Positions 1,847 through 19,511 are shown, numbered from the stretch's first letter. The stretch is 33,364 bases of DNA from an uncultured Ectothiorhodospiraceae bacterium (GCA_964614545.1 CAZTPE010000002.1:1-33364), one strand, 5' to 3'. The notes: a model not told the origin generated them from the letters alone. Numbers and translations: made by a program.

Positions 1847-2281
1847 TCAATTATGTTCTACCGACATGACGATACCATTTTTCGTCATGATTCTGACGTG
1901 CTGCCCAACAGCAAATTGCTGGCCTTTGGCAATAACAACAACCGAGTCGCCGTTATCCAGATCAACCATCAGCTCCTGTGCATTCGCCTTGCCAGCTTCA
2001 TTGCCGGCATAAGCACCCAGCAATCCGCCAGCCAGTGTTGCCAGCGTATTACCGCGCCCCCGGCCCATAGTCGATCCGAGCACAGCGCCCGTGATGGCGC
2101 CCAGAAAACCGCCCGTTCCACTATCCTTGATGATGACAGGCTTGATGTCTGTAATCCTGCCGTCTTCATAGTGCATGAGGTAGGCCGTTGATTCAGGGCT
2201 GACCTCACTTATCCCGCTGGTAGCACATGCACCCAGAGTCAGTAGCATCATGATCAGGGTAACGGAAAATAGTCTACTCAT
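1847..2281 (-). CDS. Glycine-zipper outer-membrane lipoprotein (SlyB/Pcp-like)
   Basis: 144 aa. Signal peptide plus lipobox LTLGAC. Glycine-zipper segment GGFLGAITGAVLGSTMGRGRGNTLATLAGGLLGAYAG. ATG start preceded by GAGAGGA. Confidence 0.7.
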   Translation of the reverse strand: MSRLFSVTLIMMLLTLGACATSGISEVSPESTAYLMHYEDGRITDIKPVIIKDSGTGGFLGAITGAVLGSTMGRGRGNTLATLAGGLLGAYAGNEAGKANAQELMVDLDNGDSVVVIAKGQQFAVGQHVRIMTKNGIVMSVEHN

Positions 2282-2322
2282 AACATCCTCTCACCATAAT
2301 TAAGTTGTACTCCGCCTGTTGT

Positions 2323-2358
2323 CGATCACCGATGGTGATCGGGTTCAGAGACCCGATC
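2323..2358 (-). other. Two overlapping, mutually exclusive 8-bp hairpins in the BON / lipoprotein spacer
   Basis: Hairpin A: cgatcacc (2323-2330) / gat / ggtgatcg (2334-2341). Hairpin B: gatcgggt (2337-2344) / tcagag / acccgatc (2351-2358). Both stems are perfect and share 2337-2341. There is no U-tract on either strand. Three GATC sites lie in 36 nt. Confidence 0.3.
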
Positions 2359-2373
2359 CCGTCCAAACAAAGT

Positions 2374-3924: not shown

Positions 3925-4059
3925 GCGTATTTCCTCTGATTTTCTCAAAAAACCAAACTTTTCATTTAGTTGTGTATTCGAGAGACACTTACTTTGAAAA
4001 TACAATTTCGGTTAAACCTCTCGCTTGCATGCATGCTAGTCTCGTCAGGGTCGGAGGGA

Positions 4060-4137
4060 TGTAACCCTAGTTACAGTCAGGTAATTTTCTGTAGCATTGG
4101 TAACTCTGTCTGTGATTTTTCTGTAGCAAAATCACAG
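4060..4137. promoter_or_regulatory. Cluster of dyad and direct repeats in the AT-rich region upstream of the BON gene (candidate operator sites)
   Basis: Three elements. TGTAAC-ccta-GTTACA at 4060-4075. A 12-nt direct repeat ttttctgtagca at 4085-4096 and 4117-4128 (32-nt period). A perfect 10-bp inverted repeat ctgtgatttt (4110-4119) / aaaatcacag (4128-4137). Confidence 0.3.
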
Positions 4138-4354
4138 AATCCTGTCAGGCGAAAGGAACCAACTCGGAGGAAGGACATTTTGGATTAAAATTTTCGATCG
4201 TTCGCGGCGAATAGCAATCGCTGCTTTAACGGATAATGATCGAAAATAAATCTGACCGACATGGATTATCTTCAGCAGATATCTCAAAAATCCAACAGGC
4301 ACCTGATCACGACAACTTCTGACCAGGCCGGAGCCGGTATGTGTGTTCACCTGG

Positions 4355-6793
4355 CTATCCATCAGAGCGCTCCCGCAGGCGCTGTTCCACCTCTAGCACA
4401 TGACGTGTTGTGGTAAGTACTGTGTCCGGATTGAGGCTCATGGAGTCAATGCCGATTTCCACCAGATACTCAGCCATCTCGGGATAGTCCGATGGCGCCT
4501 GCCCACACAGCCCAGAATGGCGGCCGTTGCGCTTGGCTCCTGTCACCGCCAGGCGGATCATCTCTTTTACACCGGGATCACGTTCATCAAAATCAAAGGC
4601 GACAATTTCCGAATCACGATCGACACCAAGGGTCAACTGAGTGAGGTCATTGGAACCGATGGAAAAGCCGTCAAACAGCTCGGAAAACTCATCAATGAGG
4701 ATGACGTTATTGGGAATCTCACACATGACGTAAACCTCAAGACCGTTTTCACCGCGCGCTAGACCGTTGGCGGCCATGGCCTCCAATACCCTTTCTCCCT
4801 CTTCTACCCGTCGGCAGAATGGAATCATCAATTTGACGTTAGTCAGACCCATATCATCACGCACCCGCTTCATGGCCATGCACTCCAGGGCAAAGCCCTC
4901 GGCATAAGCAGGGTGCGCGTAACGGGATGCACCACGAAAACCGATCATCGGATTATCTTCTTCCGGCTCAAAAAAAGCACCGCCCAGCAAGGTTGCATAT
5001 TCATTACTCTTAAAGTCACTCATGCGGACCACACAGGGTTTGGGATAAACCGCAGCGGCAATCGTGGCGACACCCTCAGCAAGAGTTTTAATGAAAAAGT
5101 CTTCAGGATCATCATGGGCGATACTGATGACCGCGATCTTCTCACGGGTCTCATCATCCACCTTTTCCGGGTGTTTGAGCGCCATCGGGTGAACCTTGAT
5201 GTATTCATTGATAATAAATTCCATCCGCGCCAGGCCGATGCCATCCACAGGCAGTGAGGCGAGGCTGAATGCCTGATCCGGATTACCCAGATTCATCATT
5301 ATCTCGGTGTTGGGTTTCCCCAGTTGACTGAGATCCGTCTGCTGAATTTCAAAATCCAGAATACCTTCATAGACATTGCCGGTTTCGCCTTCGGCACAAC
5401 TGACGGTGATTTCCTGCCCGTTTCTCAATAACTCGGTCGCACGCCCGGATCCAACAATGGCGGGAATTCCCAGTTCACGTGAAACGATAGCGGCGTGGCA
5501 GGTACGGCCACCACGATTAGTAACGATCGCGGCTGCCGTTTTCATCACCGGCTCCCAGTCCGGTGTCGTGGTATCGGCCACCAGGATTTCTCCCGGCTGA
5601 AAGTCGTTAAGATATTTAACCTCAGTGATGGCACGTACTTTTCCGCTGCCAATTTTGGTACCAACGGCTCGACCCTGGAGAACAACACGGGATCTTTCAT
5701 TCAGGTGATATATTTCAAGCACGCTGCCTTTTTTTTGCGATGCCACCGTCTCCGGTCTTGCCTGCACCATGTACAGTTGTCCGTCATTGCCATCCTTTGC
5801 CCACTCCATATCCATGGGCTTATAAAATCCGGCTTTCTGTGAATAATGTTTTTCCACACGAATGGCATAATCCGCAAGCACCATGATATCCACATCGGTG
5901 ATACAGAAGTGATTTCTTTCCTCGTTAGTGGTGTCAATATTTCGGGTATACTCCACAGCGATGTTGCCGGTATTGAGGGTATCGGTAAAAATCATCTTCT
6001 TTTCTTTTTTTCCCAGGCGGCGTTTCAGAACGGCCCGATAATTCTTTTCAAATGTGGGTTTGTGCACATAGAAACTGTCGGGATCAATCGTTCCCTGCAC
6101 CACATTTTCACCAAGCCCCAGTGCGGCATTGATAAAAACGACATCCTTGAAGCCGGTTTCTGTGTCCAGCGAAAACATTACGCCGCTGGCCCCCAAATCA
6201 CTGCGCACCATTTTCATCACAACAACAGAAAGGTAGACTTTGTAGTAGTCAAAACCATTATCGTATTTATAGTGAATGGAGCGGTCAGTAAAATTGGAGG
6301 CCAAGCAGCGTTTATAGGCATCAAGCAGTGCATCCACATTGCTGACATTGAGGTAAGTATCATTTTGTCCGGCAAAGGAGGCCTCTGGTGAGTCCTCCGC
6401 CGTGGCCGATGAGCGCACTGCCACGGAAAAATTCTCGCCGTATTCCCGCTTTAATCGCTCATAGCCTTGAGAAATTTCCGCTTTCAGATCATCCGGCAAT
6501 ACACAGCCATCGACGATCGTCCTGGCTGTTTCACCGCGAGCCTGCAAGTCCTTAATATTATCCGGGTCCAGGCCATCAAGTGCCTTATGTAATAACGGCC
6601 AGGCATTGTTGTGATCAAGTACATAACGATATGCCGTTGCGGTAATGGCAAATCCATTGGGAACTCGCACGCCTTCTGAACGCAGGTTTTGATACATTTC
6701 CCCCAACGAGGCATTCTTGCCGCCAACCAGTGGTACATCATCAATACTCATTTCAGAAAACCAGCGAATATATTGATCAGATCCATTACTCAT
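4355..6793 (-). CDS. ppsA: Phosphoenolpyruvate synthase (pyruvate, water dikinase)
   Basis: 812 aa. N-terminus IRWFSEMSIDDVPLVGGKNASLGEMY. Phospho-His loop GGRTCHAAIVSRELGIPA. C-terminal PEP-utilising motif GSNDLTQLTLGVDRD. AGGAGA SD upstream of ATG 6793. Confidence 0.95.
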   Translation of the reverse strand: MSNGSDQYIRWFSEMSIDDVPLVGGKNASLGEMYQNLRSEGVRVPNGFAITATAYRYVLDHNNAWPLLHKALDGLDPDNIKDLQARGETARTIVDGCVLPDDLKAEISQGYERLKREYGENFSVAVRSSATAEDSPEASFAGQNDTYLNVSNVDALLDAYKRCLASNFTDRSIHYKYDNGFDYYKVYLSVVVMKMVRSDLGASGVMFSLDTETGFKDVVFINAALGLGENVVQGTIDPDSFYVHKPTFEKNYRAVLKRRLGKKEKKMIFTDTLNTGNIAVEYTRNIDTTNEERNHFCITDVDIMVLADYAIRVEKHYSQKAGFYKPMDMEWAKDGNDGQLYMVQARPETVASQKKGSVLEIYHLNERSRVVLQGRAVGTKIGSGKVRAITEVKYLNDFQPGEILVADTTTPDWEPVMKTAAAIVTNRGGRTCHAAIVSRELGIPAIVGSGRATELLRNGQEITVSCAEGETGNVYEGILDFEIQQTDLSQLGKPNTEIMMNLGNPDQAFSLASLPVDGIGLARMEFIINEYIKVHPMALKHPEKVDDETREKIAVISIAHDDPEDFFIKTLAEGVATIAAAVYPKPCVVRMSDFKSNEYATLLGGAFFEPEEDNPMIGFRGASRYAHPAYAEGFALECMAMKRVRDDMGLTNVKLMIPFCRRVEEGERVLEAMAANGLARGENGLEVYVMCEIPNNVILIDEFSELFDGFSIGSNDLTQLTLGVDRDSEIVAFDFDERDPGVKEMIRLAVTGAKRNGRHSGLCGQAPSDYPEMAEYLVEIGIDSMSLNPDTVLTTTRHVLEVEQRLRERSDG

Positions 6794-6811
6794 GTTGTCT
6801 GTCTCCTGTGA

Positions 6812-7093
6812 TTACTCAAGGTGTTCGACCAGTTTTTCCAGCCGCTTGGCGACAATATCCCAAATCACCATTGGGCCACCTTCCTTTGCCCATTCCTCTG
6901 CGGACAGTGCCTTGATCTCATCGAGGTGGCCCGCCAGCTTGTTACGTTCCTGTTTCAGGCCAGATAGTTCAGACTGGTGTTCCACCTTCTGAAAATACGT
7001 TTTGCTCGCACGCGCGATGAGTTCATCAATATGTTTCAGACGTGACTCATACTCTCTGACATGAGATTCAACTAATTGTTCTTCATTGGTCAT
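6812..7093 (-). CDS. Small hypothetical coiled-coil protein
   Basis: ORF 6812..7171. Preferred ATG is 7093 (MTNEEQLVESHVREYESRLKHIDELI...) with GAGGAG SD. The sequence is heptad-like and charged. It lies 18 nt upstream of ppsA. I recognise no family. Confidence 0.5.
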   Translation of the reverse strand: MTNEEQLVESHVREYESRLKHIDELIARASKTYFQKVEHQSELSGLKQERNKLAGHLDEIKALSAEEWAKEGGPMVIWDIVAKRLEKLVEHLE

Positions 7094-7170
7094 TGTTTTC
7101 TCCTCAGTATGATTGAGAGGTTGACGATCACTCATGGGACATCTAACAATTCCAGCATGTGGCAGATCCA

Positions 7171-7198
7171 TATTTAATAAACCTGATCGATTACCAGG
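7171..7198 (-). terminator. Weak candidate intrinsic terminator or attenuator after the DUF1003 gene
   Basis: On the minus strand: cctggt-aatcg-atcagg (6-bp stem including one G.U; plus-strand coordinates 7182-7198), followed by TTTATTAAATA (7171-7181). Confidence 0.25.
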
Positions 7199-7205
7199 GA
7201 AAAGG

Positions 7206-7913
7206 TCAGCTCACTTTGTCATGCAGTTCATTCAACATCTCCATCTGTATCTGCTGAACTTCCATGAAACGTCGCATCTCCTGATGTAGCAGCTGGTCGA
7301 GTTTTTCATTGATGAGGCGAACTTCCATTTCGGATTTCAGATTCACCTGATAGTCATTTTCTGCACGAATACGGTCGCGGTCTTCCTGCCGGTTCTGGCT
7401 CATCATGATAATCGGGGCCTGGATTGCCGCCAGAAACGAGAGCATGAGATTGAGCAGAATGAAGGGATAAGGATCAAATGGCCCGGTAAATGCGAGCACC
7501 GTATTGATGACTATCCATGCAGCGAGAAAGATGCAGAACCAGATAATAAACCGCCAGCTGCCGCCAAATTCAGCCACTTTGTCAGCGAAGCGATCACCAA
7601 AGGTCAGGGTCTGTTCGTATTCCTCATTAAGGTTTTCGGAAAGCAGGGCATTGTCCTGCAGACTCGACACAACCTCCTTCTCCAGCTCATCCAGTTCACC
7701 CAGATCCTTCTCCATCAACTGCCGCACATAGTCGGTGCGATACCGGTTTAGGCACGCAAAACAGATCTGGCCGCTATCCTTCCAGTCGGGGTGGTCCTCA
7801 CGGATCAGACTCAACACACCACCCCTGACCATTCTTGCCGGCAGTAGCTGACTCATCGGTTTATCTTGTCGGCAAACCTGGCAGATTCCGATATGTGACT
7901 TATCAAGACTCAT
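7206..7913 (-). CDS. DUF1003 family membrane protein with N-terminal CxxC...CxxC zinc-ribbon-like module
   Basis: 235 aa. N-terminus has CQVCRQDK...CFACLNRY. The DUF1003 core is FGDRFADKVAEFGGSWRFIIWFCIFLAAWIVINT...FDPYPFILLNLMLSFLAAIQAPIIMMSQNRQEDRDR...DYQVNLKSEMEV. Its ATG overlaps the E2 stop (ATGA, 7910-7913). Confidence 0.8.
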   Translation of the reverse strand: MSLDKSHIGICQVCRQDKPMSQLLPARMVRGGVLSLIREDHPDWKDSGQICFACLNRYRTDYVRQLMEKDLGELDELEKEVVSSLQDNALLSENLNEEYEQTLTFGDRFADKVAEFGGSWRFIIWFCIFLAAWIVINTVLAFTGPFDPYPFILLNLMLSFLAAIQAPIIMMSQNRQEDRDRIRAENDYQVNLKSEMEVRLINEKLDQLLHQEMRRFMEVQQIQMEMLNELHDKVS

Positions 7914-9121
7914 GGTTCCGCCTGGGCCAGGCCTTCAGGCTCACCCAGTAACAGGGCCAATGTCTCCAGAAAACGCGCCGCATCGGCACCGTAAACCACC
8001 CGATGATCACAACTAAGAGTAAATTCGGCAAAGCCATTCTGTGTCGCGGCCACGGCAAGAATGGCCGCTGCCCCAACGGGAACCACGGCATCGAAACGGG
8101 AAATCATGCCAAACATACCGAGATTGGACAGATAGAAAGTCGCACCACGGTAGTCTCTTGGAGCCAACCTTAGGCGAGGAGTTTTTCCCATCGCTCGCGC
8201 CTTTAAACTGCTCCAATCCTCGGCAAGCTCCTCCACGGGCCGACGGGCGACATCACGCAGAACGGGTGTTACCAAGCCGTTAGGCACATCCACAGCGATA
8301 CCGACATCAACCTGTCGTCGTTGGGCCAAACCCTGTGATGTGTAGACGGCATTGAAGCGCGGGTGTGCCTCCACCGTTAGTGCACAGGCACGAGCCATTA
8401 GCAGGGTCAGAGAATATTTTTCCTGATGCGCAAGCGTGCTCAATGACTGGAGGGAAAGTCGGGCACTAACGTGAAATACGGGAGTCGCCGTGGCCGCAAT
8501 CATATTATTGGCGACGGCCCGCTGCATCGGCGTCAGGGTCAAGAGCTCATAGTCAGGACCATCATCAAGATTCGGCTCTGGCCTGCCCAATGCAGCAGCC
8601 ACCACCTGGACAGCGCGAATACTGCCGTCCGGCCCCGGTGTTAGCCCCGCCAGATTGATCCCCAGTTCACGTGCCAAACCACGGGCATAGGGTGAAGAGG
8701 GTACGTGGATGAATGATGTCGACGAGGGCGTGTTGCCAGTCTCCGGATCGCTGCTTGATGCGGGGGGCACGGCTAACGGAGTCGGCGCTTTTGCTTCAAT
8801 GGTCTGAGAGGCTGTTATCTTGGCGCCCTGTGTATCATTCGATCTCTTTTGCGTTGGTTCTGCTTTATCTTCCCCCCTCTCAAGATTATCGACGATATAG
8901 CCGATTACCGCACCAACCGGAAGATCCGTATCTGCCGCCGCCAGGGGACCAGCCAGATAACCATCATGGAAGACTTCCACCTCCATGACTGCCTTATCAG
9001 TTTCGACTTCGGCAATGGCATCACCTTTTTTCACCACATCGCCCGGCTGTTTCAACCACTGTATGAGATGACCGGTTTCCATGGTGTCGGAAAGGGTCGG
9101 CATCAAAATGGGTTCCCGCAT
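7910..9121 (-). CDS. 2-oxoacid dehydrogenase E2 (dihydrolipoamide acyltransferase), single lipoyl domain
   Basis: ORF 7910..9130 (GTG). Preferred ATG is 9121, with AAGGAG 8 nt upstream. Lipoyl-lysine motif AEVETDKAVMEVE. E3/E1-binding motif SPYARGLARELGINL. Catalytic motif SCDHRVVYGADAARF. Confidence 0.9.
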   Translation of the reverse strand: MREPILMPTLSDTMETGHLIQWLKQPGDVVKKGDAIAEVETDKAVMEVEVFHDGYLAGPLAAADTDLPVGAVIGYIVDNLERGEDKAEPTQKRSNDTQGAKITASQTIEAKAPTPLAVPPASSSDPETGNTPSSTSFIHVPSSPYARGLARELGINLAGLTPGPDGSIRAVQVVAAALGRPEPNLDDGPDYELLTLTPMQRAVANNMIAATATPVFHVSARLSLQSLSTLAHQEKYSLTLLMARACALTVEAHPRFNAVYTSQGLAQRRQVDVGIAVDVPNGLVTPVLRDVARRPVEELAEDWSSLKARAMGKTPRLRLAPRDYRGATFYLSNLGMFGMISRFDAVVPVGAAAILAVAATQNGFAEFTLSCDHRVVYGADAARFLETLALLLGEPEGLAQAEP

Positions 9122-9147
9122 GACTGACACTCCTTGGTTAACCGAAG

Positions 9148-10128
9148 TTAGTTGGAACAGAGGGTTTGCGCGGCATCCATGATGTCAGCGATTTGAGGGA
9201 TGCTGGCGGCCTCCAGACCGGCGTTATACGCGATGGGCAGTTCCCTTCCCGCTACCCGCCGTGGTGCCGCATCCAGAGTCAGGAAACAGCGTTCGGTCAG
9301 TCCGGCGGTAATCTCGGCACCAGCGCCTGCAAAACCCGTATCCTCCTCCACTATCAGCAGACGGTGAGTCTTTTCCAGTGACGCCACGCAAGTATCCCAG
9401 TCGATGGGGCGCAGGCTGCGCAGATCGATGACCTCCGCCTCAATACCGCTTGATGCCATCTGCGTCGCCGCTTGCAGGGAGAGGTCACGCATCCGTGAAT
9501 AGGTGACAATCGTAAGGTCACTCCCCTGCCGACAAACCTGAGCACGATGCATAGCTGGCGCCTGTCGCGACTCATCCAGTGACCCTTTGCTGAAATAGAG
9601 CAGTTCGTGTTCAAGTAGCACAATGGGCTCGTTACTACTAAGCGCCTGACGCAATTGCCAATAGGCATCCTGTGGTGTCGCGGGAACGGCGATGCGCAGC
9701 CCCGGCACATTCATCAGGGTCTGTTCCAGCCGTTGCGAATGTTGCGCGGCGAGTTGCTTGGCCACCCCGCCGGGCATGCGCACCACCAGTGGCATAGGAA
9801 ACTGTCCCCCGGACATGAAAGGGATCTTGGCCGCCATGTTGATGATGGCATCCAGCGCGAGTAACGCAAAGTTGATGGTCATGATTTCTACCACCGGGCG
9901 CAGGCCGACCATTGCCGCACCCACGCCAAGGCCGGTGAAACTACCCTCGGAAATGGGTGTGTCACGCAGTCGCCATTCACCATATTTGGCATATAAGCCT
10001 TCGGTCACACGGTAACTGCCACCATAAAGTCCCACGTCTTCGCCCAACACGATAACTGACTCATCCACGGCCATCTCGGCATCCAGGGCACGATTGAGCG
10101 CTTGCCAGTAATAGACAGTGTTATTCAC
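9148..10128 (-). CDS. 2-oxoacid (pyruvate/acetoin-type) dehydrogenase E1 beta subunit
   Basis: ORF 9148..10164. The ATG at 10164 has no SD. The GTG at 10128 is preceded by GGGAGGAA plus 6 nt and gives VNNTVYYWQALNRALDAEM, the usual short N-terminus. Other motifs: VLGEDVG.YGG, RLRDTPISEGSFTGLGVGAAM. Confidence 0.85.
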   Translation of the reverse strand: MNNTVYYWQALNRALDAEMAVDESVIVLGEDVGLYGGSYRVTEGLYAKYGEWRLRDTPISEGSFTGLGVGAAMVGLRPVVEIMTINFALLALDAIINMAAKIPFMSGGQFPMPLVVRMPGGVAKQLAAQHSQRLEQTLMNVPGLRIAVPATPQDAYWQLRQALSSNEPIVLLEHELLYFSKGSLDESRQAPAMHRAQVCRQGSDLTIVTYSRMRDLSLQAATQMASSGIEAEVIDLRSLRPIDWDTCVASLEKTHRLLIVEEDTGFAGAGAEITAGLTERCFLTLDAAPRRVAGRELPIAYNAGLEAASIPQIADIMDAAQTLCSN

Positions 10129-11332
10129 TCCGCATTCCTCCCTCAGGGGTTCTGCTAATTCCATTTTTGGTTAATGCTACTGATTCAGTAACAGGTCGAT
10201 AGTCAATCTCCACCGTATCGAGCATTTCGACCAGGGTGTCGGGAATTTTTCCGGGCAATAGATGCACTTCACTCACCCGGTTTCTGAGTAGCCAGGCAAT
10301 CAGTTTCATGGCCTTGCCGTGTTCATCCTCACTGAAGGGATTGCTGTACCACGACTGTGTCCGGCCCTCCGCAGAACCCTCCTCAAGGCGGATGTAGCGC
10401 GCCTTGCCAAAGTGGTGGGCGGGAGTCTTGCGGTCGGCTTCAAACAGAGTAGCGATGCGCTTGTATCGCTGATGCACAGGTTCATAGTGCAGAGTGACTT
10501 CCTCAATGCGTGGTATCTTCTGTTTGAGTTGCTCGGCAATGTCGTCTACCAGTTGATGTGCCTTGTTGAAACTTTGCACGTCCAACACCAGGGTTGCACG
10601 AACAAAGAGTACGCTGCCCGCGCTGCGGATATAGAGGTCTCTGACCTCTTCCAACGCAGGGTGAGAAGACAGATAACGCTGTATTTCCTCACGATCATTA
10701 CTCGTCGCGGAAGCATCTAACAATGAAAAGAGACTGTCGCGAATCACTTCATAGGCACCATAAAAAATCATCGCAGCGATAACGACAACAGCCACTTCCT
10801 GTGCGTAAGGAACACCCAGCAAATGGCCACCAATGCCAGCCATAACCACCAGCCCGGCACCCATATCACCCAACCAATTGACCACATCACTGTTCAGGCC
10901 GGGAGAATTCAGGCAGGCAGCAGCACGTTTTTCCCGAAGATAGAACACCGTCTGCACCCATAACACCAGGGCCATGAAACCCAGAGTGGCAAAGGGTACC
11001 GAGGCGTTTGTTACACCACTGCCAAAGAAGACGGAGCGCAGAATTTCATAACCCGCGAACAGTACAGCCAACCCGCCCAGCAGCGCTGCCATATCCTCCA
11101 GCTTGTACATGCCGAGAGGAAAGCGACGGGAACGGCGTGTGGAAAAACGCACGGCACCATAGACCAGTAGCGCACCCAGCACATCGGTAAAACTATGAAT
11201 GGCATCCGCCAAGACCACGGTGCTACCGGAGAACAATCCCCAAGCCAGTTTGAACATCGCCAGCACGGCATTCAGCAGTGTGGAGATCAGCAGCCAGCGA
11301 CGTGTCTGCGCCAATGCGCTGGCAGTCGCCAT
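10121..11332 (-). CDS. Cation diffusion facilitator (CDF) family metal transporter with an additional C-terminal NifX/NifB-like (Nitro_FeMo-Co type) domain
   Basis: ORF 10121..11362. The tracked start is TTG; I prefer ATG 11332 (MATASALAQTRRW...). CDF transmembrane-domain motifs: LADAIHSFTDVLG, FPLGMYKLEDMAALLGG. CDF cytoplasmic domain: ...IRSAGSVLFVRATLVLD...IEEVTLHYEP. An extra ~115 aa follows: KRIATLF....HHFGKARYIRLEE....NPF...HGKAMKLIAWLLRNRVSEVHL..GKIPDTLVEMLDTVEI. Confidence 0.8.
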   Translation of the reverse strand: MATASALAQTRRWLLISTLLNAVLAMFKLAWGLFSGSTVVLADAIHSFTDVLGALLVYGAVRFSTRRSRRFPLGMYKLEDMAALLGGLAVLFAGYEILRSVFFGSGVTNASVPFATLGFMALVLWVQTVFYLREKRAAACLNSPGLNSDVVNWLGDMGAGLVVMAGIGGHLLGVPYAQEVAVVVIAAMIFYGAYEVIRDSLFSLLDASATSNDREEIQRYLSSHPALEEVRDLYIRSAGSVLFVRATLVLDVQSFNKAHQLVDDIAEQLKQKIPRIEEVTLHYEPVHQRYKRIATLFEADRKTPAHHFGKARYIRLEEGSAEGRTQSWYSNPFSEDEHGKAMKLIAWLLRNRVSEVHLLPGKIPDTLVEMLDTVEIDYRPVTESVALTKNGISRTPEGGMRSE

Positions 11333-12393
11333 CAGATCAGGACCTCTCCCCGACGATTGCAATCCAACGCCGCCTGCGCATCAGCCAGCGTGGGCTCGGG
11401 GCTTTCACTGGCGAAACGCACGGCCGCCTCCACCTCAGCGGTGATTTCCGCCTGCATGGCATCGAGATGTTCGGGTGGAAAATGTCCACCACTGCGCAGA
11501 CTGCCCGTCAGGCTGTCGATATTGTCCGAGCCGACGGCCGCAATCTGCTCTGCCGTGGGATAGGCGGTCACGGTCTCGGCGATGGCAATCTTTACCGGGT
11601 CCTCGGTATTTTCGAAGGCCTGCAATTCCACCTTGGGACGGTAACTGCCGGGGTCGGCCATGGAATGACCACGAAAACGGTAGGTCTCGCATTCGATGAA
11701 TTGTGGTCCATTGCCAGCACGGATTTGCGCCAGGGCCTCTTCGGTCGCATGATGCACGGCCAGCACGTCCATGCCGTTAACCCGGCGGGCCGGAATGCGA
11801 TATCCACAGGCGCGCTTGTAAACCTCGGTAACCGCTGAATGGCGGTGAATCTCGGTACCTATCTGGTAATGGTTGTTCTCGCACACGAACAGCACCGGCA
11901 GTTTCCACAGCGCCGCCATGTTGAGACTTTCGTGGAAGGTACCCTGATTAACAGCGCCGTCGCCGAAGAAACAGATTACCGCCTCGGGCAGTTCACGCAT
12001 GGCGATGGCATAGCCGATACCGGTGGCGATGGGAAAGGTCTCGCCGACGATGGCATAACCGCCCATGAAACGGCGCTCGCGATCGAACAGATGCATGGAG
12101 CCCCCCATGCCGCCGCTGCAACCGGTCTTGCGCCCAAACAACTCGGCCATCACCACCCGGGCCGGTACGCCACGCACCAGGGCGTGGACATGTTCCCGGT
12201 AAGTAGAGACGACATAATCGGCGGGCTCCACCGCATGCAGTACGCCCACGCCCACCGCCTCCTCACCCGGATAGAGATGTAGAAAACCGGCGATGTTGCC
12301 CTGGGCGTATTCCTGCGCCGCCCGCTCTTCGAAGGCCCGCGCCAGCAGCATGTCGCGCAGCATCGTCCTTAAGCGATCCGATTCCATGTTCAT
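11332..12393 (-). CDS. 2-oxoacid (pyruvate/acetoin-type) dehydrogenase E1 alpha subunit, TPP-dependent
   Basis: 353 aa. Motifs: FLHLYPGEEAV, and TPP motif GDGAVNQGTFHESLNMAALWKLPVLFVCENNHY. Its stop TGA shares one base with the CDF ATG (TGATG, 11330-11334). Confidence 0.9.
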   Translation of the reverse strand: MNMESDRLRTMLRDMLLARAFEERAAQEYAQGNIAGFLHLYPGEEAVGVGVLHAVEPADYVVSTYREHVHALVRGVPARVVMAELFGRKTGCSGGMGGSMHLFDRERRFMGGYAIVGETFPIATGIGYAIAMRELPEAVICFFGDGAVNQGTFHESLNMAALWKLPVLFVCENNHYQIGTEIHRHSAVTEVYKRACGYRIPARRVNGMDVLAVHHATEEALAQIRAGNGPQFIECETYRFRGHSMADPGSYRPKVELQAFENTEDPVKIAIAETVTAYPTAEQIAAVGSDNIDSLTGSLRSGGHFPPEHLDAMQAEITAEVEAAVRFASESPEPTLADAQAALDCNRRGEVLI

Positions 12394-12457: not shown

Positions 12458-12808
12458 TCACGATTTCTTATCCTGGCAAAACTCATCCGCTGCTGCGAAC
12501 AGCGGTGTCATATACATATAGGCCGGCCCGCCGTGCATCACGACCGCCATGAAGCCAGCCTCAATCAAGTCATCACGACTGGCACCGGCCCTGGCTGCCT
12601 GTTCGACATGGAAGGCAATGCACCATTCACATTGACCTGCGACCGCCAGAGCGACATTGATCAATTCCTTGACACGCAGATCCAAAGCCTTTCCTTCTTC
12701 AGCCTTTTGCAGAAAGCCAAGAAAGGCCCCTGTCTCTGCGGGATAATCTTTGCGCAGGCGACGGGTCAACTCCCCCACTTGGTCAAGCTTGGTGCGCATC
12801 GTCCCCAT
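12458..12808 (-). CDS. Carboxymuconolactone decarboxylase (CMD) family / AhpD-like protein with CxxCxxxH motif
   Basis: 116 aa. Contains GQCEWCIAFHVEQA, a C-x-x-C-x-x-x-H motif. GAGGAG SD 8 nt upstream of ATG 12808. Lies 64 nt upstream of E1 alpha on the same strand. Confidence 0.85.
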   Translation of the reverse strand: MGTMRTKLDQVGELTRRLRKDYPAETGAFLGFLQKAEEGKALDLRVKELINVALAVAGQCEWCIAFHVEQAARAGASRDDLIEAGFMAVVMHGGPAYMYMTPLFAAADEFCQDKKS

Positions 12809-12981
12809 GGCATTACTCCTCTGGTCAATATGCGAGCCTATGCACTTTAGGACAGCTCGCCCCGGGCATCAGTAACCCAGGTTGCAGTTAGTCACATTTT
12901 GTTGAGGCAAAATGTTACAAACTCACAGAGGGGCAGTTTGACCTGTGCCCCGGCCCGCCAAGATCAATCAGGAGAACAACC

Positions 12982-13305
12982 ATGCGCGACTACAGCAACA
13001 TACCAGCCCTCGCCTGGACAGGAGCGATCAGCGCCAAGAAGGCCATCGCGCAGGTTCACCATGCCGAGCCGGTGATTCTGCAGATGCCGGAAGACTTCGT
13101 GATGGCCATCGATGCCCCCGCCTGCGGCTGCAAGGCCGGTGCGGGAGCGATGCAGCACATCGACTGCCATGCCGAGGACACCTTGACAACATTGGCGGAG
13201 GCGAACAATGAGCCCACATTGGTTGAATTGGCGGAAGTCGCCCATGAGGCCGGCCAGGTGGTGGATATCGACACCGATACCCGGCGAATCATCATCCACG
13301 ACTAG
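12982..13305 (+). CDS. Hypothetical small acidic protein with CGC...C cysteines
   Basis: 107 aa. AGGAGAA SD 7 nt upstream of the ATG. G/C-rich third codon positions are consistent with the neighbouring genes. Motif DAPACGCKAGAGAMQHIDCH. I recognise no family. Confidence 0.5.
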   Translation: MRDYSNIPALAWTGAISAKKAIAQVHHAEPVILQMPEDFVMAIDAPACGCKAGAGAMQHIDCHAEDTLTTLAEANNEPTLVELAEVAHEAGQVVDIDTDTRRIIIHD

Positions 13306-13392
13306 TACTCCGTCCAGGCAGTGCATCAGCCAGTTGATCACTGAAAGCACGTCAAGCAAGGATCAAGGTGTGCACGCTACGGGTGAATGTAG

Positions 13393-13409
13393 TGTGCGCC
13401 GCGCGCACA
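13393..13409. other. GC-rich hairpin between convergent genes
   Basis: tgtgcgc (13393-13399) / cgc / gcgcaca (13403-13409). There is no U-tract on either strand, so it is not a canonical terminator. Confidence 0.2.
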
Positions 13410-13465
13410 AGACTGAGTCGGCCAATTTCCCCGTGAACGCCATACCCCTGTAGTGAGCTGAATAA

Positions 13466-14224
13466 TTAGCTTTTCTTCCTGCTCAGAAGATAGTGCAAAC
13501 CCAGTGCCGCCAGCAGCAGGGCGAACAGGGAACGCAGGTGCAATTCCGGCAGCGCAAGGGCCAGGCGGCTGCCCAGCCAGGCACCGATCAGACCACCGCC
13601 AACCAACCCGGGCAGGAGCTGGAAGCGGATGTGCCGGTGAAAAAAGTTCTCCACACCGCCGGCCACCACCGCGGGAATGCGCGCCGCCAATGAACAGCCC
13701 TGCGCCAATTGTTGGGGCATACCGAGACCCAGCACCAGCAGGGGCGCCAACACCGGGCCACCACTGACTCCCACGCTGCCCGCCACCAGACCTTCCAAAA
13801 TACCGATACCGATCAAATAGACGGGGCGGGCAGTGCCTTGCAGCGCCCAGTCGCCCAGTAATTGATCCCGCAACAACAGCATCAAGGCCCCGCCCACTAC
13901 CACAGCACCGAACAGGCGCCGCAGACGCTCCCCGGAAAGACGTTCACTCCACAGACTGACCAGCGGCGTCACAATCAGGGCGGGTATGGCGATCAGCGCC
14001 ACCGCCAGCCAGTCCATCTGTCCCGCCTGCTGATAGATCCAGGTACCCAGCAAGGCCGGAAAAAAGGCCGCCACCAGTGCCGTGCCACGCGCCTCGAACT
14101 CCGTCAGCTGCAACCAGTACAGCATCAGCGGGATGGTCACGGTGCCGCCACCGAGACTGAACAGGCCGCCGCCGAAGCCGGCCAGCAGACCGATCAGCAG
14201 GGATTTGGGGTGAGTGGTTTTCAC
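13466..14224 (-). CDS. TauE/SafE (DUF81) family anion (sulfite/sulfonate-type) export permease
   Basis: 252 aa, GTG start. Two internally repeated halves with the glycine motifs GFGGGLFSLGGGTVTIPL and GSVGVSGGPVLAPLL. About 8 hydrophobic helices. Confidence 0.8.
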   Translation of the reverse strand: MKTTHPKSLLIGLLAGFGGGLFSLGGGTVTIPLMLYWLQLTEFEARGTALVAAFFPALLGTWIYQQAGQMDWLAVALIAIPALIVTPLVSLWSERLSGERLRRLFGAVVVGGALMLLLRDQLLGDWALQGTARPVYLIGIGILEGLVAGSVGVSGGPVLAPLLVLGLGMPQQLAQGCSLAARIPAVVAGGVENFFHRHIRFQLLPGLVGGGLIGAWLGSRLALALPELHLRSLFALLLAALGLHYLLSRKKS

Positions 14225-14251
14225 GATGCGCCAGTCGAAGGCTACATGCAG

Positions 14252-15217
14252 TTAGATATCTAGGCAGCGTATCTCGATGCCATCGAGATAGACCTCCACG
14301 TCCGCCGCGGAGAACAGCTCTGTGCCCGGCTGGCTGACCGTGCCGGCGGCGCAGGCGATACCCAGACGCAGGGCCTCCGCCGCCGTCTGGCCATGGGCAA
14401 AAGCGGCCACCAGCGCCGCCACCATGGAATCCCCGGCGCCGACACTGGAGCGCACGATCACTTCCGGTGCGGCGGCGTGATAGCTGTTGTCCGGCCCGAC
14501 CAACAGGGCGCCATCTCCATCCAGGGAGACGCAGACATGATCCACGCCGCCTTGCTGCAATTCACGGGCCTCGCTCGCCACCTTTTCGAGACTGTCGAGC
14601 GAACGGCCAAGCAATGCCTCCAGCTCGTGGCGATTGGGTTTGATGAGGAAGGGCCGGGCATCGATGGCATGGCGCAGGGCCTCATCGTGGGAATCCACCA
14701 CCGCCCGGCCGCCTGCCTCACTGATGCGCCGGGCCAGCTCGGCGTAGAGCGTGGGCGGCAATGTCCGCTGCAGGGAACCGGTCAGCACACCAATGCCTTG
14801 GGCGCTGTGCGCGACGAAGCGCGCCAGTAGTTCATTGAGCTGGGTGGGCGGAATCTCGGGGCCGATGCCGTTGACCTCATACTGCCGCCGGGTCGAGAGC
14901 TCGATGAAGGTGCCGTTGATGCGGGTCTCACCCGCCACCTCCTCGCGGTCCACCCAATCCAGTTGATCGTGTAGCAGGCGCTGCAGCAACTGGCCGATTT
15001 CACCGCCGGTCGTACAATAGCTTTGTGCCTGCGTATTCAGCCGCTTCAGCGCCCGGCCGACGTTGATGCCGTTGCCGCCGGGATCGAAGCGGGTGGTCAC
15101 GGCATGGGCCTTCTGATCCTCCAGCAAACGGGGAATCTCGTAGGTCATGTCCACCGCCGGATTGAGCGACAGCACGCCGATGGGCAGGGACTCCCCTGTG
15201 AGCACCTCACCCGTCAA
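14252..15217 (-). CDS. PfkB-family sugar-phosphate kinase (1-phosphofructokinase / Pfk-2-like hexose-phosphate kinase)
   Basis: 321 aa. TTG start preceded by GGAGG plus 7 nt, overlapping the aldolase stop (TTGA, 15214-15217). Motifs: LSLNPAVDMTYEI, DPGGNGINV, PfkB signature SSVGAGDSMVAAL. Confidence 0.8.
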   Translation of the reverse strand: MTGEVLTGESLPIGVLSLNPAVDMTYEIPRLLEDQKAHAVTTRFDPGGNGINVGRALKRLNTQAQSYCTTGGEIGQLLQRLLHDQLDWVDREEVAGETRINGTFIELSTRRQYEVNGIGPEIPPTQLNELLARFVAHSAQGIGVLTGSLQRTLPPTLYAELARRISEAGGRAVVDSHDEALRHAIDARPFLIKPNRHELEALLGRSLDSLEKVASEARELQQGGVDHVCVSLDGDGALLVGPDNSYHAAAPEVIVRSSVGAGDSMVAALVAAFAHGQTAAEALRLGIACAAGTVSQPGTELFSAADVEVYLDGIEIRCLDI

Positions 15218-16239
15218 GGCGAGGCCTCCATGGCTTCTCCGTACTCACCGCGCTGGGCCGCACCGTTGAGCCGCGCGCGCTTGAGCAGCGCCTGCTGCGC
15301 CGCCGGCACGTTTTCCGCCTTGCCCTGCCAAGCCTGCAGCACCGGCTGCTGCAGGGCGCGGCCATAGGAAAACGACAGCAGCCAGGGTTCCAGCGGGAAA
15401 CCGGCATTGATGGCATTGAGGTTGACCGTAGCCTGCTGCGGGCTCAGGCCACCGGAGAGAAAATTGATACTCGGCACCGCCGCCGGGACACAGCGGCGCA
15501 GCACCCGCACCGTGGCCGCGGCGACCTCTTCGGCGCTGGCCTGTTGCGGGCAGTCCTTGCCCGGCAACACCATATTGGGCTTGAGTACCATGTGTTCGAG
15601 CACCACGTGGTAACGATGCAGGGCGTGAAAGACTGCCTTCTGCACCGCCTCGGTCACCTCGGCGCAGCGGGCCAGGCTGTGGTCGCCGTCCATCAACACC
15701 TCCGGCTCGACGATGGGCACGATGCCCTGCTCCTGACACACTGCCGCATAACGCGCCAGCATCTCGGCATTGGCGCTGATGCCCAGGGGCGAAGGATTGC
15801 GCCTGCTGATGGGATAGACCTCACGCCACTTGGCGAAGCGCGCGCCCTGCTGCTTGTATTGCTGCAGCCGCTCGGCCAGTCCGTCGAGACCATAGGTGAT
15901 GAGATCACCCGGCGACAAAGCCAGCGGCCCCTTGCCTTTGTCCACCTTGACGCCGGGAACAATATCCCGCCGCGCCAGCTCTTCGGGCAGGCTCGTGCCG
16001 TCATCCGCAACCTGTGTCAGGGTCTCTTCAAATTCGATCACTCCGCTGATGTAGTCCTCGATACCCGGTGCGGTAAACAACAGGGCGCGATAGGCACGGC
16101 GACTCTCCTCAGTGGATTCCACACCAATAGGCGAAAAACGCTTGGCAATGGTGGGCAGACTTTCGTCAGCGGCGAGAATGCCCTTGCCCGGTTGCACCAT
16201 CTGCTCAATGGTGGCCCGGAGTTCACCTACAATGGTCAT
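15214..16239 (-). CDS. fba: Fructose-bisphosphate aldolase, class I
   Basis: 341 aa. Motifs: GKGILAADES, FEETL, Schiff-base lysine region VLEHMVLKPNMV, and FLSGG. Confidence 0.9.
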   Translation of the reverse strand: MTIVGELRATIEQMVQPGKGILAADESLPTIAKRFSPIGVESTEESRRAYRALLFTAPGIEDYISGVIEFEETLTQVADDGTSLPEELARRDIVPGVKVDKGKGPLALSPGDLITYGLDGLAERLQQYKQQGARFAKWREVYPISRRNPSPLGISANAEMLARYAAVCQEQGIVPIVEPEVLMDGDHSLARCAEVTEAVQKAVFHALHRYHVVLEHMVLKPNMVLPGKDCPQQASAEEVAAATVRVLRRCVPAAVPSINFLSGGLSPQQATVNLNAINAGFPLEPWLLSFSYGRALQQPVLQAWQGKAENVPAAQQALLKRARLNGAAQRGEYGEAMEASP

Positions 16240-17204
16240 GATTTATCTCCTCTGGCTGATACACTACTTGTTGATAGACCATCGCCATCCCAATGCTGAT
16301 GCAACAACACCGCGATGGCGGCTGAAACCAGACGTGCAAGAGGCGGGTCAGAGCGGGACGGGAGCATCACCGGCACCTTGGCGCCAATGACAATACCCGC
16401 CAGTGTCGCCCCAGCAAGATATTCCAGATTCTTCGCCAGGATATTTCCTGCATCCAGATCGGGGGCCAGCAGAATGTCCACATCACCTGCCACTGGACTC
16501 ACAATTTGTTTTACCTTCGCCGCCTCACGCGAAATGGCATTATCAAAGGCCAGTGGCCCGTCCACCTCGGCACCACGGATTTGGCCACGCTGGGCCATCT
16601 TGCAGAGACAGGCGGCATCCAGTGTGGAAGGAATGCTGGGCTTGACCAATTCCACCGCCGACAGCACCGCAACCTTTGGCGTCGTCACCCCCAGAATGCG
16701 TGCCAGATCAATGGCATTTTGCAAGATCGCCGCCTTGGTGGTGAGATCGGGCGCGATGTTGATGGCCGCGTCGGTGATAAATAACAGCTTGTGATAATCG
16801 GGCAAATCGGCAATAAAAACATGACTCACACGCCGGCTCGTGCGCAACTGACGCAGCACCGGATGCATCAGTTCATCGGTGTGTATCCAGCCCTTGACCA
16901 GCGCCGCTGCCCGCCCCTCCAGCACCTGTTGCACCCCAATATCAGCAGCCTGAAAACCCGAAGATACATCGAGAATTTCAAACCGCTCTACGGGACAACC
17001 CAGTTGCCGGCATACCGCCTCTACTTCACTTCGGGGACCCACCAGCAACGGTTCAATAAGTCCACGATCACTGGCCTCCACGACGCCGGCCAACACATGA
17101 GCCTCCTGCGCATCCACCACCGCCACTGGCAGTGGTGAATATTGCCGCGCCGCGTCAATAATTTTCTGCATGTGTTCGGGGATTTGCTTTTCCAAGATAT
17201 TCAT
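16236..17204 (-). CDS. Phosphate acetyl/butyryl-transferase family protein (PTA_PTB)
   Basis: ORF 16236..17348. I prefer ATG 17204 (MNILEKQIPEHMQKIIDAAR...), which lies downstream of the peroxiredoxin stop. Motifs: VAVVDAQEAHVLAG, EPLLVGP, HVFIADLPDYHKLLFITDAAINI, MLPSRSD. Its stop overlaps the aldolase ATG (ATGA). Confidence 0.8.
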   Translation of the reverse strand: MNILEKQIPEHMQKIIDAARQYSPLPVAVVDAQEAHVLAGVVEASDRGLIEPLLVGPRSEVEAVCRQLGCPVERFEILDVSSGFQAADIGVQQVLEGRAAALVKGWIHTDELMHPVLRQLRTSRRVSHVFIADLPDYHKLLFITDAAINIAPDLTTKAAILQNAIDLARILGVTTPKVAVLSAVELVKPSIPSTLDAACLCKMAQRGQIRGAEVDGPLAFDNAISREAAKVKQIVSPVAGDVDILLAPDLDAGNILAKNLEYLAGATLAGIVIGAKVPVMLPSRSDPPLARLVSAAIAVLLHQHWDGDGLSTSSVSARGDKS

Positions 17205-17238
17205 CCCTCTTTCGAGCACGCTGACAGGTCCGCTGGAA

Positions 17239-17889
17239 TCATTTCTGTAAAGGTTTATGGCAGAACCACCAGTCATAGCAATCATGTTCCTGCATGCGCT
17301 TGGCAGCAGTTGCCTCATCGGTGGCCGGTGGAACGATGACCTGATCACCGATCAATTCATTGTTTGGCCAGCCGGCCGGAATAGCGCCCTGGGCATCGGA
17401 AACCTGCAAGGCCTGCAGGGCCCGCAGCACCTCATCGATATTTCTGCCAATCTCCTGCGGATAGTACAGCACCAACCTGACCTTGCTTTTCGGGTCGACA
17501 ATGAAAACAGCCCGCACCGTATTACTGCCCTTTTCCGGATGCAACATGCCCAGCGTGCTGGCAATGCGATCATTGGCCGCAACGATGGGGAAGGTGATTT
17601 CGATATCGAGGTTTTCCTTGATCCACTGCGTCCACTTGATATGCGAAAAGACCTGATCCACGGACATGCCGATCAGCTTACAACCAAGTTTCTCGAACTG
17701 TTCACAGCGCTTCTGAAAAGCGAAGAATTCCGTGGTGCAGACGGGCGTAAAATCGGCAGGATGGCTAAACAAGACAAACCATTGGCCTTTCATGTCTTCG
17801 GGAATATTCATCGGGCCGTGGGTGGTCTGCACGCTCAGGCTGGGAAAGTCGTCGCCCAGCAAGGGAATAGATGTCTGGTTTTCTTGCAT
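17239..17889 (-). CDS. Peroxiredoxin, Prx6-subfamily type with C-terminal CxDWWFC motif
   Basis: ORF 17239..17976. Preferred ATG is 17889, with GGAGAA SD. Motifs: [26 protein letters not shown] (peroxidatic Cys), and the C-terminal [13 protein letters not shown]. Confidence 0.9.
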
Positions 17890-17938
17890 AATGTTCTCCG
17901 TGGCTTGTTGTCTTAGTCTTGCTGTCTTAGTAAAGGCA

Positions 17939-19354
17939 TCAATGCCCCACAGGCCCGTGCGCGGCCAGTGCCACACGCGCGGCCTGCGCGAAGGATTCCG
18001 TTAGCGTCGGATGAGGATGGATCGCCGCAGCAATGGCTTCCAGTGGCAGACCGGCATGAACCAGCAGCGCGGCCTCGCCCATCAGATTCGCAGCACCATC
18101 GACCAGTGCATGCACGCCAATAATTTTTCTGTCTAACGTATTGTAGACAATCTTGAGCAGACCGCTGTCGTGTCCGCCGATCTGCGCGCGGGCATCCTGG
18201 GAAAAATCGTAGCGGGCCACTGCGACATCCATGCCCGCTGCCTTGGCCTGCTCTTCGGTCAGGCCGGCCATGGCCAGTTCCGGGGTACTGAAAATGACGG
18301 CGGAATTGTGCATGGGCTGCGGAAATGGCGCGGGCTGGCCCAGCAGGTGACGCGCCAGAGCCAGCCCCTGCGCGGTGGCCCAGTGCGCAAACATGGGCTG
18401 CCCCGCCACATCGCCCACAGCATAGATACCCGGCTCAGTGGTCTGCAGAGCCTCATCAACGGTAATGCCATGCGGGGTTGCGCTGATTGCTGTGGTCTCC
18501 AGACCCAGTCCGTCGATGTGCGCGTGTCGACCTGCGGCCGTCAATACGGCGGTGGCAAAGGATTGGTCACAGCCGCCCTCCGCCAGGTCATATTGCACAA
18601 ACAGCCCCTTGCCGGTGTGGCAGATGGTCTTGACCGAAACATTGAGCTGCAGCGTAATGCCCTGCACAATCAAGTGCTGCTCCAGCAGTCGGGCCAGCTC
18701 CTCGTCAACGCCACTCAGAATACGTGGCCCGCGCTCCAGCAGGGTAACGTTTGCCCCCAAGGCACGAAAAACCTGTGCCAGTTCCACGCCGATGGGCCCA
18801 CCGCCAATAACCGTTAAATATTCAGGGATGCACTCGATATCGAGAATGGCGTCGCTGCTGAAGACGCGAGGCAGATCGGCACCATGTACAGGCAGGCGGT
18901 TGGGTCGGGATCCCGTGGCCAGAATGCACTGCTCGAAGTGCAACGTGAAGGGTTCACCCTCGTGCGGCTGAATCTCTGCCTGTCGCGTCCCTTGTAGTTG
19001 TGCATGCCCAAACAGCAGATCCAGCGTCTTTATTTGCGCCACCCTATTGATGGCTGCCCCACTGCGGCGCTGCAGGATCTCTCGTTTGCGCGCCTGTACC
19101 TTGCGCCAATCGAGTTGCACCAGCTCGGTGGGCAGCCGGATGCCAAACTCTGCCGCGCGGGTGATATCACGCAGGCGGCGCGCCGTCTCGTGAAATATCT
19201 TCGACGGAATACAGCCCTCGAACAGACAGGTGCCGCCCAAGCCGGTTCCCGCCTCCACCAGCAGCACCTTCTTGCCGGCCTGCGCCAGCGCCATCGCTGC
19301 AGGTGTTCCACCGGGCCCGCCACCGATCACCAGAATATCGTATTGCTTGTCCAT
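17939..19354 (-). CDS. lpdA: Dihydrolipoyl dehydrogenase family flavoprotein (E3-like class I pyridine nucleotide-disulfide oxidoreductase)
   Basis: ORF 17939..19372. The start is either ATG 19372 or ATG 19354 ([16 protein letters not shown]). Redox disulfide [13 protein letters not shown] (CxxxxC). Second Rossmann fold [13 protein letters not shown]-terminal HPHPTLTES His-Pro motif. Confidence 0.85.
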
Positions 19355-19442
19355 GGCTGTTGCTATCCCCATATTTTGTCAGGCAACGAAAAGAGCGAAG
19401 ACAAACACTAACACCGCCCGCACCCGGCATCTGTAACTCAGG

Positions 19443-19474
19443 TTGCACACCCCTGCGTCATCCACCGGTACAAT
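19443..19474 (+). promoter_or_regulatory. Weak sigma70-like promoter candidate upstream of the DUF360 gene
   Basis: ttgcac (19443-19448) and tacaat (19469-19474). The spacer is 20 nt, which is longer than optimal. Confidence 0.2.
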
Positions 19475-19511
19475 GCGGCAACTACCACATCAAAAACAGA
19501 AAAAGGAACAC

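Follow-up and report, generated by a model that had tools for sequence, protein, structure and literature searches.

The window analysed in this study, a stretch of 33,364 nt from an uncultured Ectothiorhodospiraceae bacterium from whose first letter all window coordinates are counted, carries on its minus strand a pyruvate dehydrogenase (PDH) operon in which a complete gene for a 403-aa cation transporter of the CDF family lies between the genes of the E1-alpha and E1-beta subunits (gene order: AhpD-like, E1-alpha, CDF, E1-beta, E2, DUF1003, a 119-aa gene, PpsA; Table 1). Comparison with related operons suggests that the CDF gene is probably accessory cargo of long standing: a slot in a core operon, translationally coupled and open to reuse, would have received it, and recombination through the conserved sequence on either side would have spread it. 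That slot is empty in most relatives and is occupied by the CDF gene here, by a split UPF0718-type permease in sister lineages, and by both cargos in one composite locus (L120). The original prediction, made on this DNA from its sequence, had not recognised a functional link of such an exporter with a dehydrogenase as described, and our full-text literature search turned up no report of pdhA and pdhB separated by a CDF or any other transporter gene.

The junctions on both sides of the CDF gene were found as the original prediction had placed them, and all coordinates of the 403-aa gene between the two E1 genes hold. The TGA of E1-alpha and the ATG of the CDF share one base, behind the Shine-Dalgarno-like GGGGAGAGG, and at the other end the CDF TAA (10123-10121) falls within E1-beta codons 2-3, so that the overlap GTGAATAA joins the two genes behind the Shine-Dalgarno GGGAGGAA. 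The GTG at 10128 is taken as the true E1-beta start because ATG stands at the same codon in the related loci L031, L112 and L118 and no in-frame start exists upstream in L002; this start, its Shine-Dalgarno in the CDF 3' end and its overlap with the CDF stop had been proposed earlier and are confirmed by the homologous start in relatives. Both sides thus show what is expected in sequence of a coupled pair, namely a stop/start overlap together with a Shine-Dalgarno inside the upstream gene, and the CDF gene presumably owes its expression to read-through of the operon and to coupling of its translation with that of E1-alpha. No direct or inverted repeats flank the CDF insert, promoter- and terminator-like matches were not above shuffled expectation, and no transposase or integrase family was found in scans of the operon genes and the checked open reading frames (ORFs), some window ORFs being unscanned and attC-like folding not examined. 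The GC content and GC at third codon positions (GC3) are 0.533/0.57 for the CDF gene, 0.608/0.71 for E1-alpha and 0.578/0.63 for E1-beta, and the downstream operon genes have a GC of 0.47-0.56. The junctions had been described as free of repeats and of any compositional break; this stands for flanking repeats and insertion sequence (IS) scars, but not entirely for composition, as the GC of the CDF gene dips below that of the E1 genes, though within the range of the downstream genes.

A search for this gene order across genomes had been proposed as a check of the arrangement, and we found that the E1-alpha/CDF/E1-beta order recurs in at least 11 contigs of at least 4 hydrothermal-vent lineages, with carriers from independent samples (L001+L014, L002, L004, L029 and L112-L117). 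When the CDF was used as query, a species-level genome scan located the order in vent metagenome-assembled genomes (MAGs) at a CDF identity of 97% (L001+L014), 80% (L002) and 73% (L004); L029 was added by a metagenome scan, and L112-L117 by exact-protein look-ups in further samples. Because the arrangement recurs in independent samples, it is not an assembly or chance feature. The CDF start and the E1-alpha stop share a base in every copy, as TGATG or TAATG (T(G/A)ATG), and the border between CDF and E1-beta is lineage-specific, the two genes overlapping by 8 nt in the window and by 4 nt in L002, whereas L004 and L112-L117 have a 52-nt spacer. The CDF ORF is intact in all copies. Synonymous divergence (dS) between CDF-bearing lineages is about 1-2, near saturation, and the ratio of nonsynonymous to synonymous divergence (dN/dS) between lineages lies at 0.10-0.15 in the CDF, against 0.04-0.10 in the E1 genes (0.05-0.10 in E1-alpha), so the arrangement is old and the CDF gene is under purifying selection, which keeps the cargo in place. 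The earlier view of the CDF as an integrated, long-kept operon member instead of a fresh insertion is borne out by these values, by the kept overlap and by the lack of IS scars. A protein search of PLSDB with the CDF returned only distant CDFs (<30% identity), and there is therefore no sign of plasmid carriage.

The E1 genes of the window belong to operons of the pdhA-pdhB-pdhC heterotetrameric (alpha2beta2) type, which they resemble in that both pass PDH cut-offs, that E2 has lipoyl, E3-binding and catalytic domains, and that an E3 gene is present in the window; the difference is that pdhA and pdhB are normally adjacent (with a TGATG overlap in related operons), whereas here a transporter gene of 1.2 kb separates them. 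A metagenome scan with E1-beta gave 80 loci at 73-90% identity, and the junction was readable in 70 of them. E1-alpha and E1-beta are adjacent in about 65 of these 70, either overlapping by 1-4 nt or lying no more than 20 nt apart, and only about 5 of the 70 have anything between the two genes. The closest CDF-free operons (L040, L042, L044, L048, L061 and others) have E1-alpha joined to E1-beta by ...CTGATCTGATGGC..., the TGATGGC junction, and the identical string, ...CTGATCTGATGGCG, is carried by the E1-alpha/CDF junction of the window. At the position of GGGGAGAGG, the uninterrupted operons have GGAGG or GAGGAGG ahead of the E1-beta ATG. As the closest uninterrupted operons share the TGATGGC junction, the CDF gene appears to have taken over the ancestral E1-beta start: the comparison shows the CDF start codon at what would be the old E1-beta start, behind the Shine-Dalgarno of the last E1-alpha codons.

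The E1-beta N-terminus reads MA(E/D)(Q/E)V in uninterrupted operons and MN(N/D)(T/K)V in the CDF-bearing ones (MNNTV in the window), where it stands behind its own GGGAGG, and GGGAGG(A/G)-N7-8-start is found ahead of E1-beta in L002 and L029 and also 3' of the permease that occupies the slot in L031 and L118. The same comparison shows E1-beta with what appears to be a new N-terminus, a new Shine-Dalgarno and a new start, all gained where the cargo has its 3' end. Read most simply, the cargo inserted at the ancestral overlap and captured the old start together with its Shine-Dalgarno, and E1-beta received from it a new start and ribosome-binding site; this insertion into the overlapping stop/start junction of E1-alpha and E1-beta would have occurred in one clade of hydrothermal-vent Gammaproteobacteria.

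The same slot holds another cargo in sister lineages. Two genes, permA and permB, lie between E1-alpha and E1-beta in L031 (E1-alpha 80%, E1-beta 84% identical) and in L118, all stops and starts overlapping, and encode small membrane proteins of 141 aa and 185-192 aa. PermA and PermB of L031 have no Pfam or NCBIfam match of their own; homologues of the larger half (192 aa) carry a PF03773 or YraQ/UPF0718 label, and through these labels the alternative cargo of the sister lineages is putatively a split permease of UPF0718 type. ArsP is defined by a vicinal cysteine pair (PMC6205960). An ArsP identity of the permease cargo was considered and rejected, as it has no vicinal Cys pair (a single Cys per half) and no family match of its own. 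The likeness to ArsP/UPF0718 permeases is thus limited to the PF03773 label of homologues of the cargo half in L031, L118 and L120, and the cargo differs from these permeases in being split into two half-size genes that fall below Pfam and NCBIfam thresholds, as well as in the missing Cys pair. Just 5' of E1-beta, permease-type and CDF-type operons have in common GGAGGATTGTC(C/T)AA plus start.

Both cargos are found in L120, in the order E1-alpha, permA, permB, a 61-aa ORF, CDF, E1-beta. Pieces of both E1 genes are joined in frame in the 61-aa ORF (residues 1-12 and 97-119 of E1-beta, residues ~203-211 and 338-353 of E1-alpha), which ends in TAATG at the CDF start; this remnant is a scar of recombination between two operon versions. 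A rhomboid-family membrane protease gene, absent from the window, was also observed between the AhpD-like gene and E1-alpha in the close relatives L001 (1088-1750), L029, L002 and L118, and is another variable membrane-protein cargo of the same operon.

Exchange of the cargo among relatives is indicated by an uneven divergence along the locus. Compared with L029, the window has an island of high nucleotide identity (Table 1) that spans the 3' half of E1-alpha and the 5' two-thirds of the CDF gene, and dS between the two is low for E1-alpha (0.20) and the CDF (0.19) but reaches 0.77 for E1-beta and 1.49 for E2. In a neighbour-joining tree of E1-alpha the CDF-bearing operons are monophyletic (90% bootstrap), whereas in that of E1-beta they are not (1%), and the window, L029 and L004 group with the permease operon L031 (91%). 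An earlier single neighbour-joining tree had the CDF-bearing operons non-monophyletic as such; that result was set aside, as the bootstrapped re-run put the conflict between the E1-alpha and E1-beta halves. The identity island, the dS contrast and the tree conflict together indicate that related genomes have exchanged the cargo along with the E1 sequence next to it, and homologous recombination using the highly conserved E1 genes as flanking arms would be the process that reshuffles the cargo between them.

Outside PDH operons, the CDF orthologues at 47-64% identity had no PDH neighbours in any context inspected; their neighbours were the mercury-resistance genes merT/merP/merA, a MacB-type ABC exporter, a second CDF, OsmC and an isoamylase gene, the Thiohalobacter orthologue lies with MerR/HMA/DsbD genes and a multihaem cytochrome, and Bacteroidales orthologues (42-45%) are without PDH neighbours too. 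L003 is a variant at 98-99% nucleotide identity to L004 in which three deletions have occurred: a 732-bp segment with a 107-aa gene that diverges from the operon, flanked in L004 by a direct repeat of ~25 nt; an in-frame 801 bp of E1-alpha (residues 35-300), most of the gene; and everything between a point ~64 nt inside E1-beta and the 119-aa gene that precedes ppsA. The CDF of L003 is intact (99% identical to that of L004) and the TGATG junction is retained. The original prediction had suggested that exporter and dehydrogenase are functionally linked; with about 5 of 70 operons interrupted, orthologues in non-PDH contexts, a permease in the same slot and the CDF kept without PDH in L003, the link cannot be upheld in that form.

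The CDF protein passes the models of its family (PF01545, 124.3 bits vs 26.6; TIGR01297, 159.5 vs 82.35; PF16916, 52.1 bits) and consists of a six-helix membrane domain (residues 1-205; 11332-10718), a CDF cytoplasmic domain (206-290; 10717-10463), a NifX/MTH1175-like domain (291-387; 10462-10172) and a disordered tail. The AlphaFold2 (AF2) model, built with 59 homologues, has a pLDDT of 86.6 and shows six long helices (2-205) followed by an alpha/beta domain, residues 291-387 being confidently folded; Foldseek matched it to YiiP/ZnT structures (E ~5e-15). With the YiiP/FieF-type CDF exporters (TC 2.A.4; PDB 5vrf, 8f6e, 3h90) the protein shares the six-helix membrane domain and the ferredoxin-like cytoplasmic domain at 23-25% identity. 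In the alignment to Shewanella YiiP, H46/D50 and N152/D156 fall on its D47/D51 and H155/D159, giving a canonical H46xxxD50 in transmembrane helix (TM) 2 and N152xxxD156 in TM5, the latter with Asn in place of His/Asp; these four residues are invariant or nearly so in 59 family members. The differences from YiiP/FieF are this TM5 Asn, the added domain of ~100 residues and the location of the gene within a PDH operon. Judging by the His-Asp/Asn-Asp site, the metal transported may be Fe(II), Mn(II) or Zn(II). FieF, ZitB, MntE, MamM/MamB, DmeF and Cdf31 were tried as identities and rejected, the best score being 94 bits vs NCBIfam equivalog cut-offs of 250-500.

The C-terminal extension is found in 59 of 59 CDF relatives, whatever their genomic context. 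Since the whole-model fold search returned CDF structures only, a sequence profile was used for the extension instead; it matches MTH1175 (PDB 1eo1) at E 5.5e-8, and PF02579, the 'dinitrogenase iron-molybdenum cofactor' domain, is matched in 17 of 28 members (best 3.8e-8), the window CDF alone scoring 16.6 bits, under the 26.3-bit cut-off. A phmmer search with the 118-aa extension against a representative library of 1.8 billion sequences gave just 7 matches and added nothing. The extension has in common with MTH1175 and the NifX/NifB C-terminal (PF02579) proteins the pattern FG...NP...G...L...GI; unlike those small proteins, it is fused to a membrane transporter, and no nitrogenase genes are nearby. 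The CDF models passed and the MTH1175/PF02579 matches of the extension therefore place the protein in an uncharacterised CDF subfamily fused to a NifX/MTH1175-like domain, a fusion of which the full-text literature search found no description. Jointly with the cargo-slot reading as a whole, we consider it probable that the gene encodes a functional CDF metal exporter, predicted to bear an extra cytoplasmic NifX/MTH1175-like domain.

Table 1. Position, strand and supporting evidence of features in the 33,364-nt window.
Feature	Position	Strand	Evidence
TGATG, one base common to E1-alpha stop and CDF start	11330..11334	-	read from sequence
Shine-Dalgarno-like GGGGAGAGG within last E1-alpha codons, 10 nt 5' of CDF ATG	11343..11351	-	read from sequence
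Shine-Dalgarno GGGAGGAA for E1-beta, within CDF 3' tail	10135..10142	-	read from sequence
GTGAATAA, 8-nt overlap of E1-beta GTG start with CDF TAA stop	10121..10128	-	read from sequence
Island of 95-99% nucleotide identity to L029	10500..11800	-	sliding-window identity; 70-85% background
AhpD-like (CMD family, CxxC) gene, first of operon	12458..12808	-	Pfam CMD 9e-18; TIGR00778 AhpD core domain 4e-12
PDH E1-alpha gene	11332..12393	-	Pfam E1_dh 1e-84; TIGR03182 409.5 bits vs cut-off 393.85
CDF cation transporter gene, 403 aa	10121..11332	-	ATG 11332-11330, TAA 10123-10121; Cation_efflux 7e-36, ZT_dimer 7e-14
PDH E1-beta gene	9148..10128	-	Transket_pyr, Transketolase_C; NF006667 360.7 bits vs cut-off 321
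E2 dihydrolipoamide acyltransferase gene	7910..9130	-	Biotin_lipoyl, E3_binding, 2-oxoacid_dh domains
DUF1003 membrane protein gene, start overlapping E2 stop	7206..7913	-	PF06210 7e-42
119-aa gene between DUF1003 and ppsA	6812..7171	-	kept at 65-77% in related loci; no Pfam family
Phosphoenolpyruvate synthase (PpsA) gene, cluster end	4355..6793	-	PPDK_N, PEP-utilizers, PEP-utilizers_C
Peroxiredoxin (AhpC/1-Cys Prx) gene overlapping end of E3/Lpd gene	17239..17976	-	
E3 dihydrolipoamide dehydrogenase gene, 5.5 kb upstream, same strand	17939..19372	-	Pyr_redox_2, Pyr_redox_dim
107-aa Cys-containing gene, divergent from operon	12982..13305	+	77-80% aa identity in CDF-bearing loci

Both E1 subunits score above the NCBIfam PDH cut-offs for heterotetrameric E1 alpha and beta, and E2 reaches 220.6 bits vs a TIGR01349 cut-off of 445; the assignment to pyruvate, instead of acetoin or a branched-chain 2-oxoacid, comes from the E1 models. 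The AhpD-like gene is found 5' of E1-alpha in many related loci too, and the DUF1003 gene follows E2 also in L002, L029, L031 and L042. The DUF1003 protein has a Cys-rich N-terminal segment and the 119-aa protein is coiled-coil-like, both genes being kept between E2 and ppsA in many related operons. In several related clusters (L033, L035, L036, L037, L039, L040 and L041) ppsA directly follows E1-alpha/E1-beta and no E2 is present, L038 has an E1-alpha/E1-beta fusion made by deletion, and in L124 and L125 E1-beta is fragmented; it seems that this E1 pair is easily lost, or else works with an E2 whose gene lies at another place. The PDH operon straddles a GC transition, as genes in the first 9 kb (1-9000) have a GC of 0.47-0.56 and a GC3 of 0.46-0.63 and those at 13000-30500 mostly 0.60-0.67 and 0.68-0.79, with the lower-GC exceptions of PTA, a response regulator and YfdX (0.56-0.57) in the 13-30 kb part. 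Further along, a Bat-like (aerotolerance-type) operon lies on the plus strand at 23003-30551 (MoxR AAA ATPase, DUF58, DUF4381, VWA, VWA-TPR, BatD), preceded by a YfdX gene and a two-component system (20033-22096).

The 107-aa frame is coding, as its aa identity in relatives is 77-80% vs 51-56% for the antisense ORF at 12964-13359. Its product has the motif MRDYSNxP...EPVILQ...CxC...C...RIIIHD and no Pfam family, and the AF2 model (pLDDT 93) gave no significant fold match in Foldseek (best E 0.17). A 44% homologue lies directly 5' of the CDF orthologue in Thiohalobacter (L026 3467-3787), and in L062 one at 38% diverges from an E1 operon that has no CDF. The gene was considered as a possible regulator or link between CDF and PDH and was left aside, its surroundings elsewhere being variable and resembling conserved synteny.

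Taking the evidence together, we think that an accessory cargo in a reusable slot is the probable explanation, with a job for the CDF that would probably be divalent-metal efflux in metal-rich vent habitats and would not depend on the dehydrogenase. Several points weigh against it. The trees are neighbour-joining trees from short alignments, only a few dozen contexts of CDF orthologues were inspected, L003 is a single MAG contig, read-through and translational coupling are both sequence-based, and any of the CDF, the permease and the composite may have come first. Two transporter families in exactly the same slot of the operon of a lipoamide-dependent enzyme could reflect selection for co-expression and not mere permissiveness, and AhpD-like, peroxiredoxin and E3 genes are in the operon or cluster as well. 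A functional link between CDF and PDH has the standing of a minority possibility. One form of it, which we consider unlikely, is that the exporter (the permease in sister lineages) is co-expressed with PDH and protects the metal- or arsenical-sensitive lipoyl/dithiol chemistry of E2 and E3 in vent fluids, or controls Fe/Mn in peroxide stress, the outcome being a stress-hardened PDH cluster with AhpD-like protein, peroxiredoxin and E3. It would account for two unrelated transporter families in one slot, conserved across lineages, and for a cluster that holds AhpD-like, E2, E3 and peroxiredoxin genes, the full gene set of a lipoamide-dependent peroxidase relay; such a relay, of Lpd-E2-AhpD-AhpC type, is known from mycobacteria. 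Moreover, neither deletion derivative, L003 or L120, has lost the reading frame ahead of the CDF start, which preserves coupled translation into the CDF, and the 107-aa gene has the CDF as its neighbour in Thiohalobacter and a PDH operon both here and in L062, although the variable wider contexts of that gene resemble conserved synteny. However, more than 90% of closely related PDH operons are cargo-free, CDF orthologues elsewhere never adjoin PDH genes in the contexts inspected, the CDF outlived PDH in L003, and the arsenical link is unsupported, as the permease is without the ArsP vicinal Cys pair. Carried further, the pdhA/pdhB junction would be a selected expression slot from which exporters of thiol-reactive metals or metalloids are made in fixed proportion with lipoamide-dependent PDH, AhpD and peroxiredoxin, a dedicated 'metal-hardened' module with the CDF, which bears the NifX-like sensor domain, as guardian of the enzyme; this we regard as doubtful.

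A direct mechanistic role, in which the CDF tethers the PDH complex to the membrane, or supplies or withdraws the divalent cation required by E1 along with thiamine diphosphate, with docking or cofactor binding left to the NifX-like domain, seems very unlikely to us. The position of the gene between two subunits of an obligate heterotetramer would agree with it, as would the conserved and confidently folded extra cytoplasmic domain and a second membrane protein gene (DUF1003) conserved in the operon; but the NifX-like domain is present in all CDF family members regardless of context, most E1 genes of related operons work without cargo, CDFs export from the cytoplasm, and no sequence feature ties the CDF to E1. 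The modest GC dip of the CDF relative to the E1 genes, and the fact that all data come from metagenome assemblies, might be taken to point to a recent insertion, a misassembly or a decaying, functionless pseudogene. Independent assemblies from many samples agree, however, the ORF is intact in all copies and gives a high-confidence AF2 model, and the conservation of the arrangement together with CDF dN/dS at near-saturated dS practically rules this explanation out.

The finding means that accessory genes can colonise the 4-nt overlap of two essential, translationally coupled genes with neither broken, and it illustrates a mechanism by which this may happen, in that the cargo starts at the former start site and equips the gene after it with another ribosome-binding site. 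A further suggestion is that conserved core genes can serve as homology arms which move cargo between related genomes. In addition, the case brings out an uncharacterised CDF subfamily, marked by the NifX/MTH1175-like domain on the cytoplasmic side and by an unusual His-Asp/Asn-Asp site, and if the protective co-expression of exporter and dehydrogenase were true, it would mean that in metal-rich habitats lipoamide enzymes are protected in a manner not described before.

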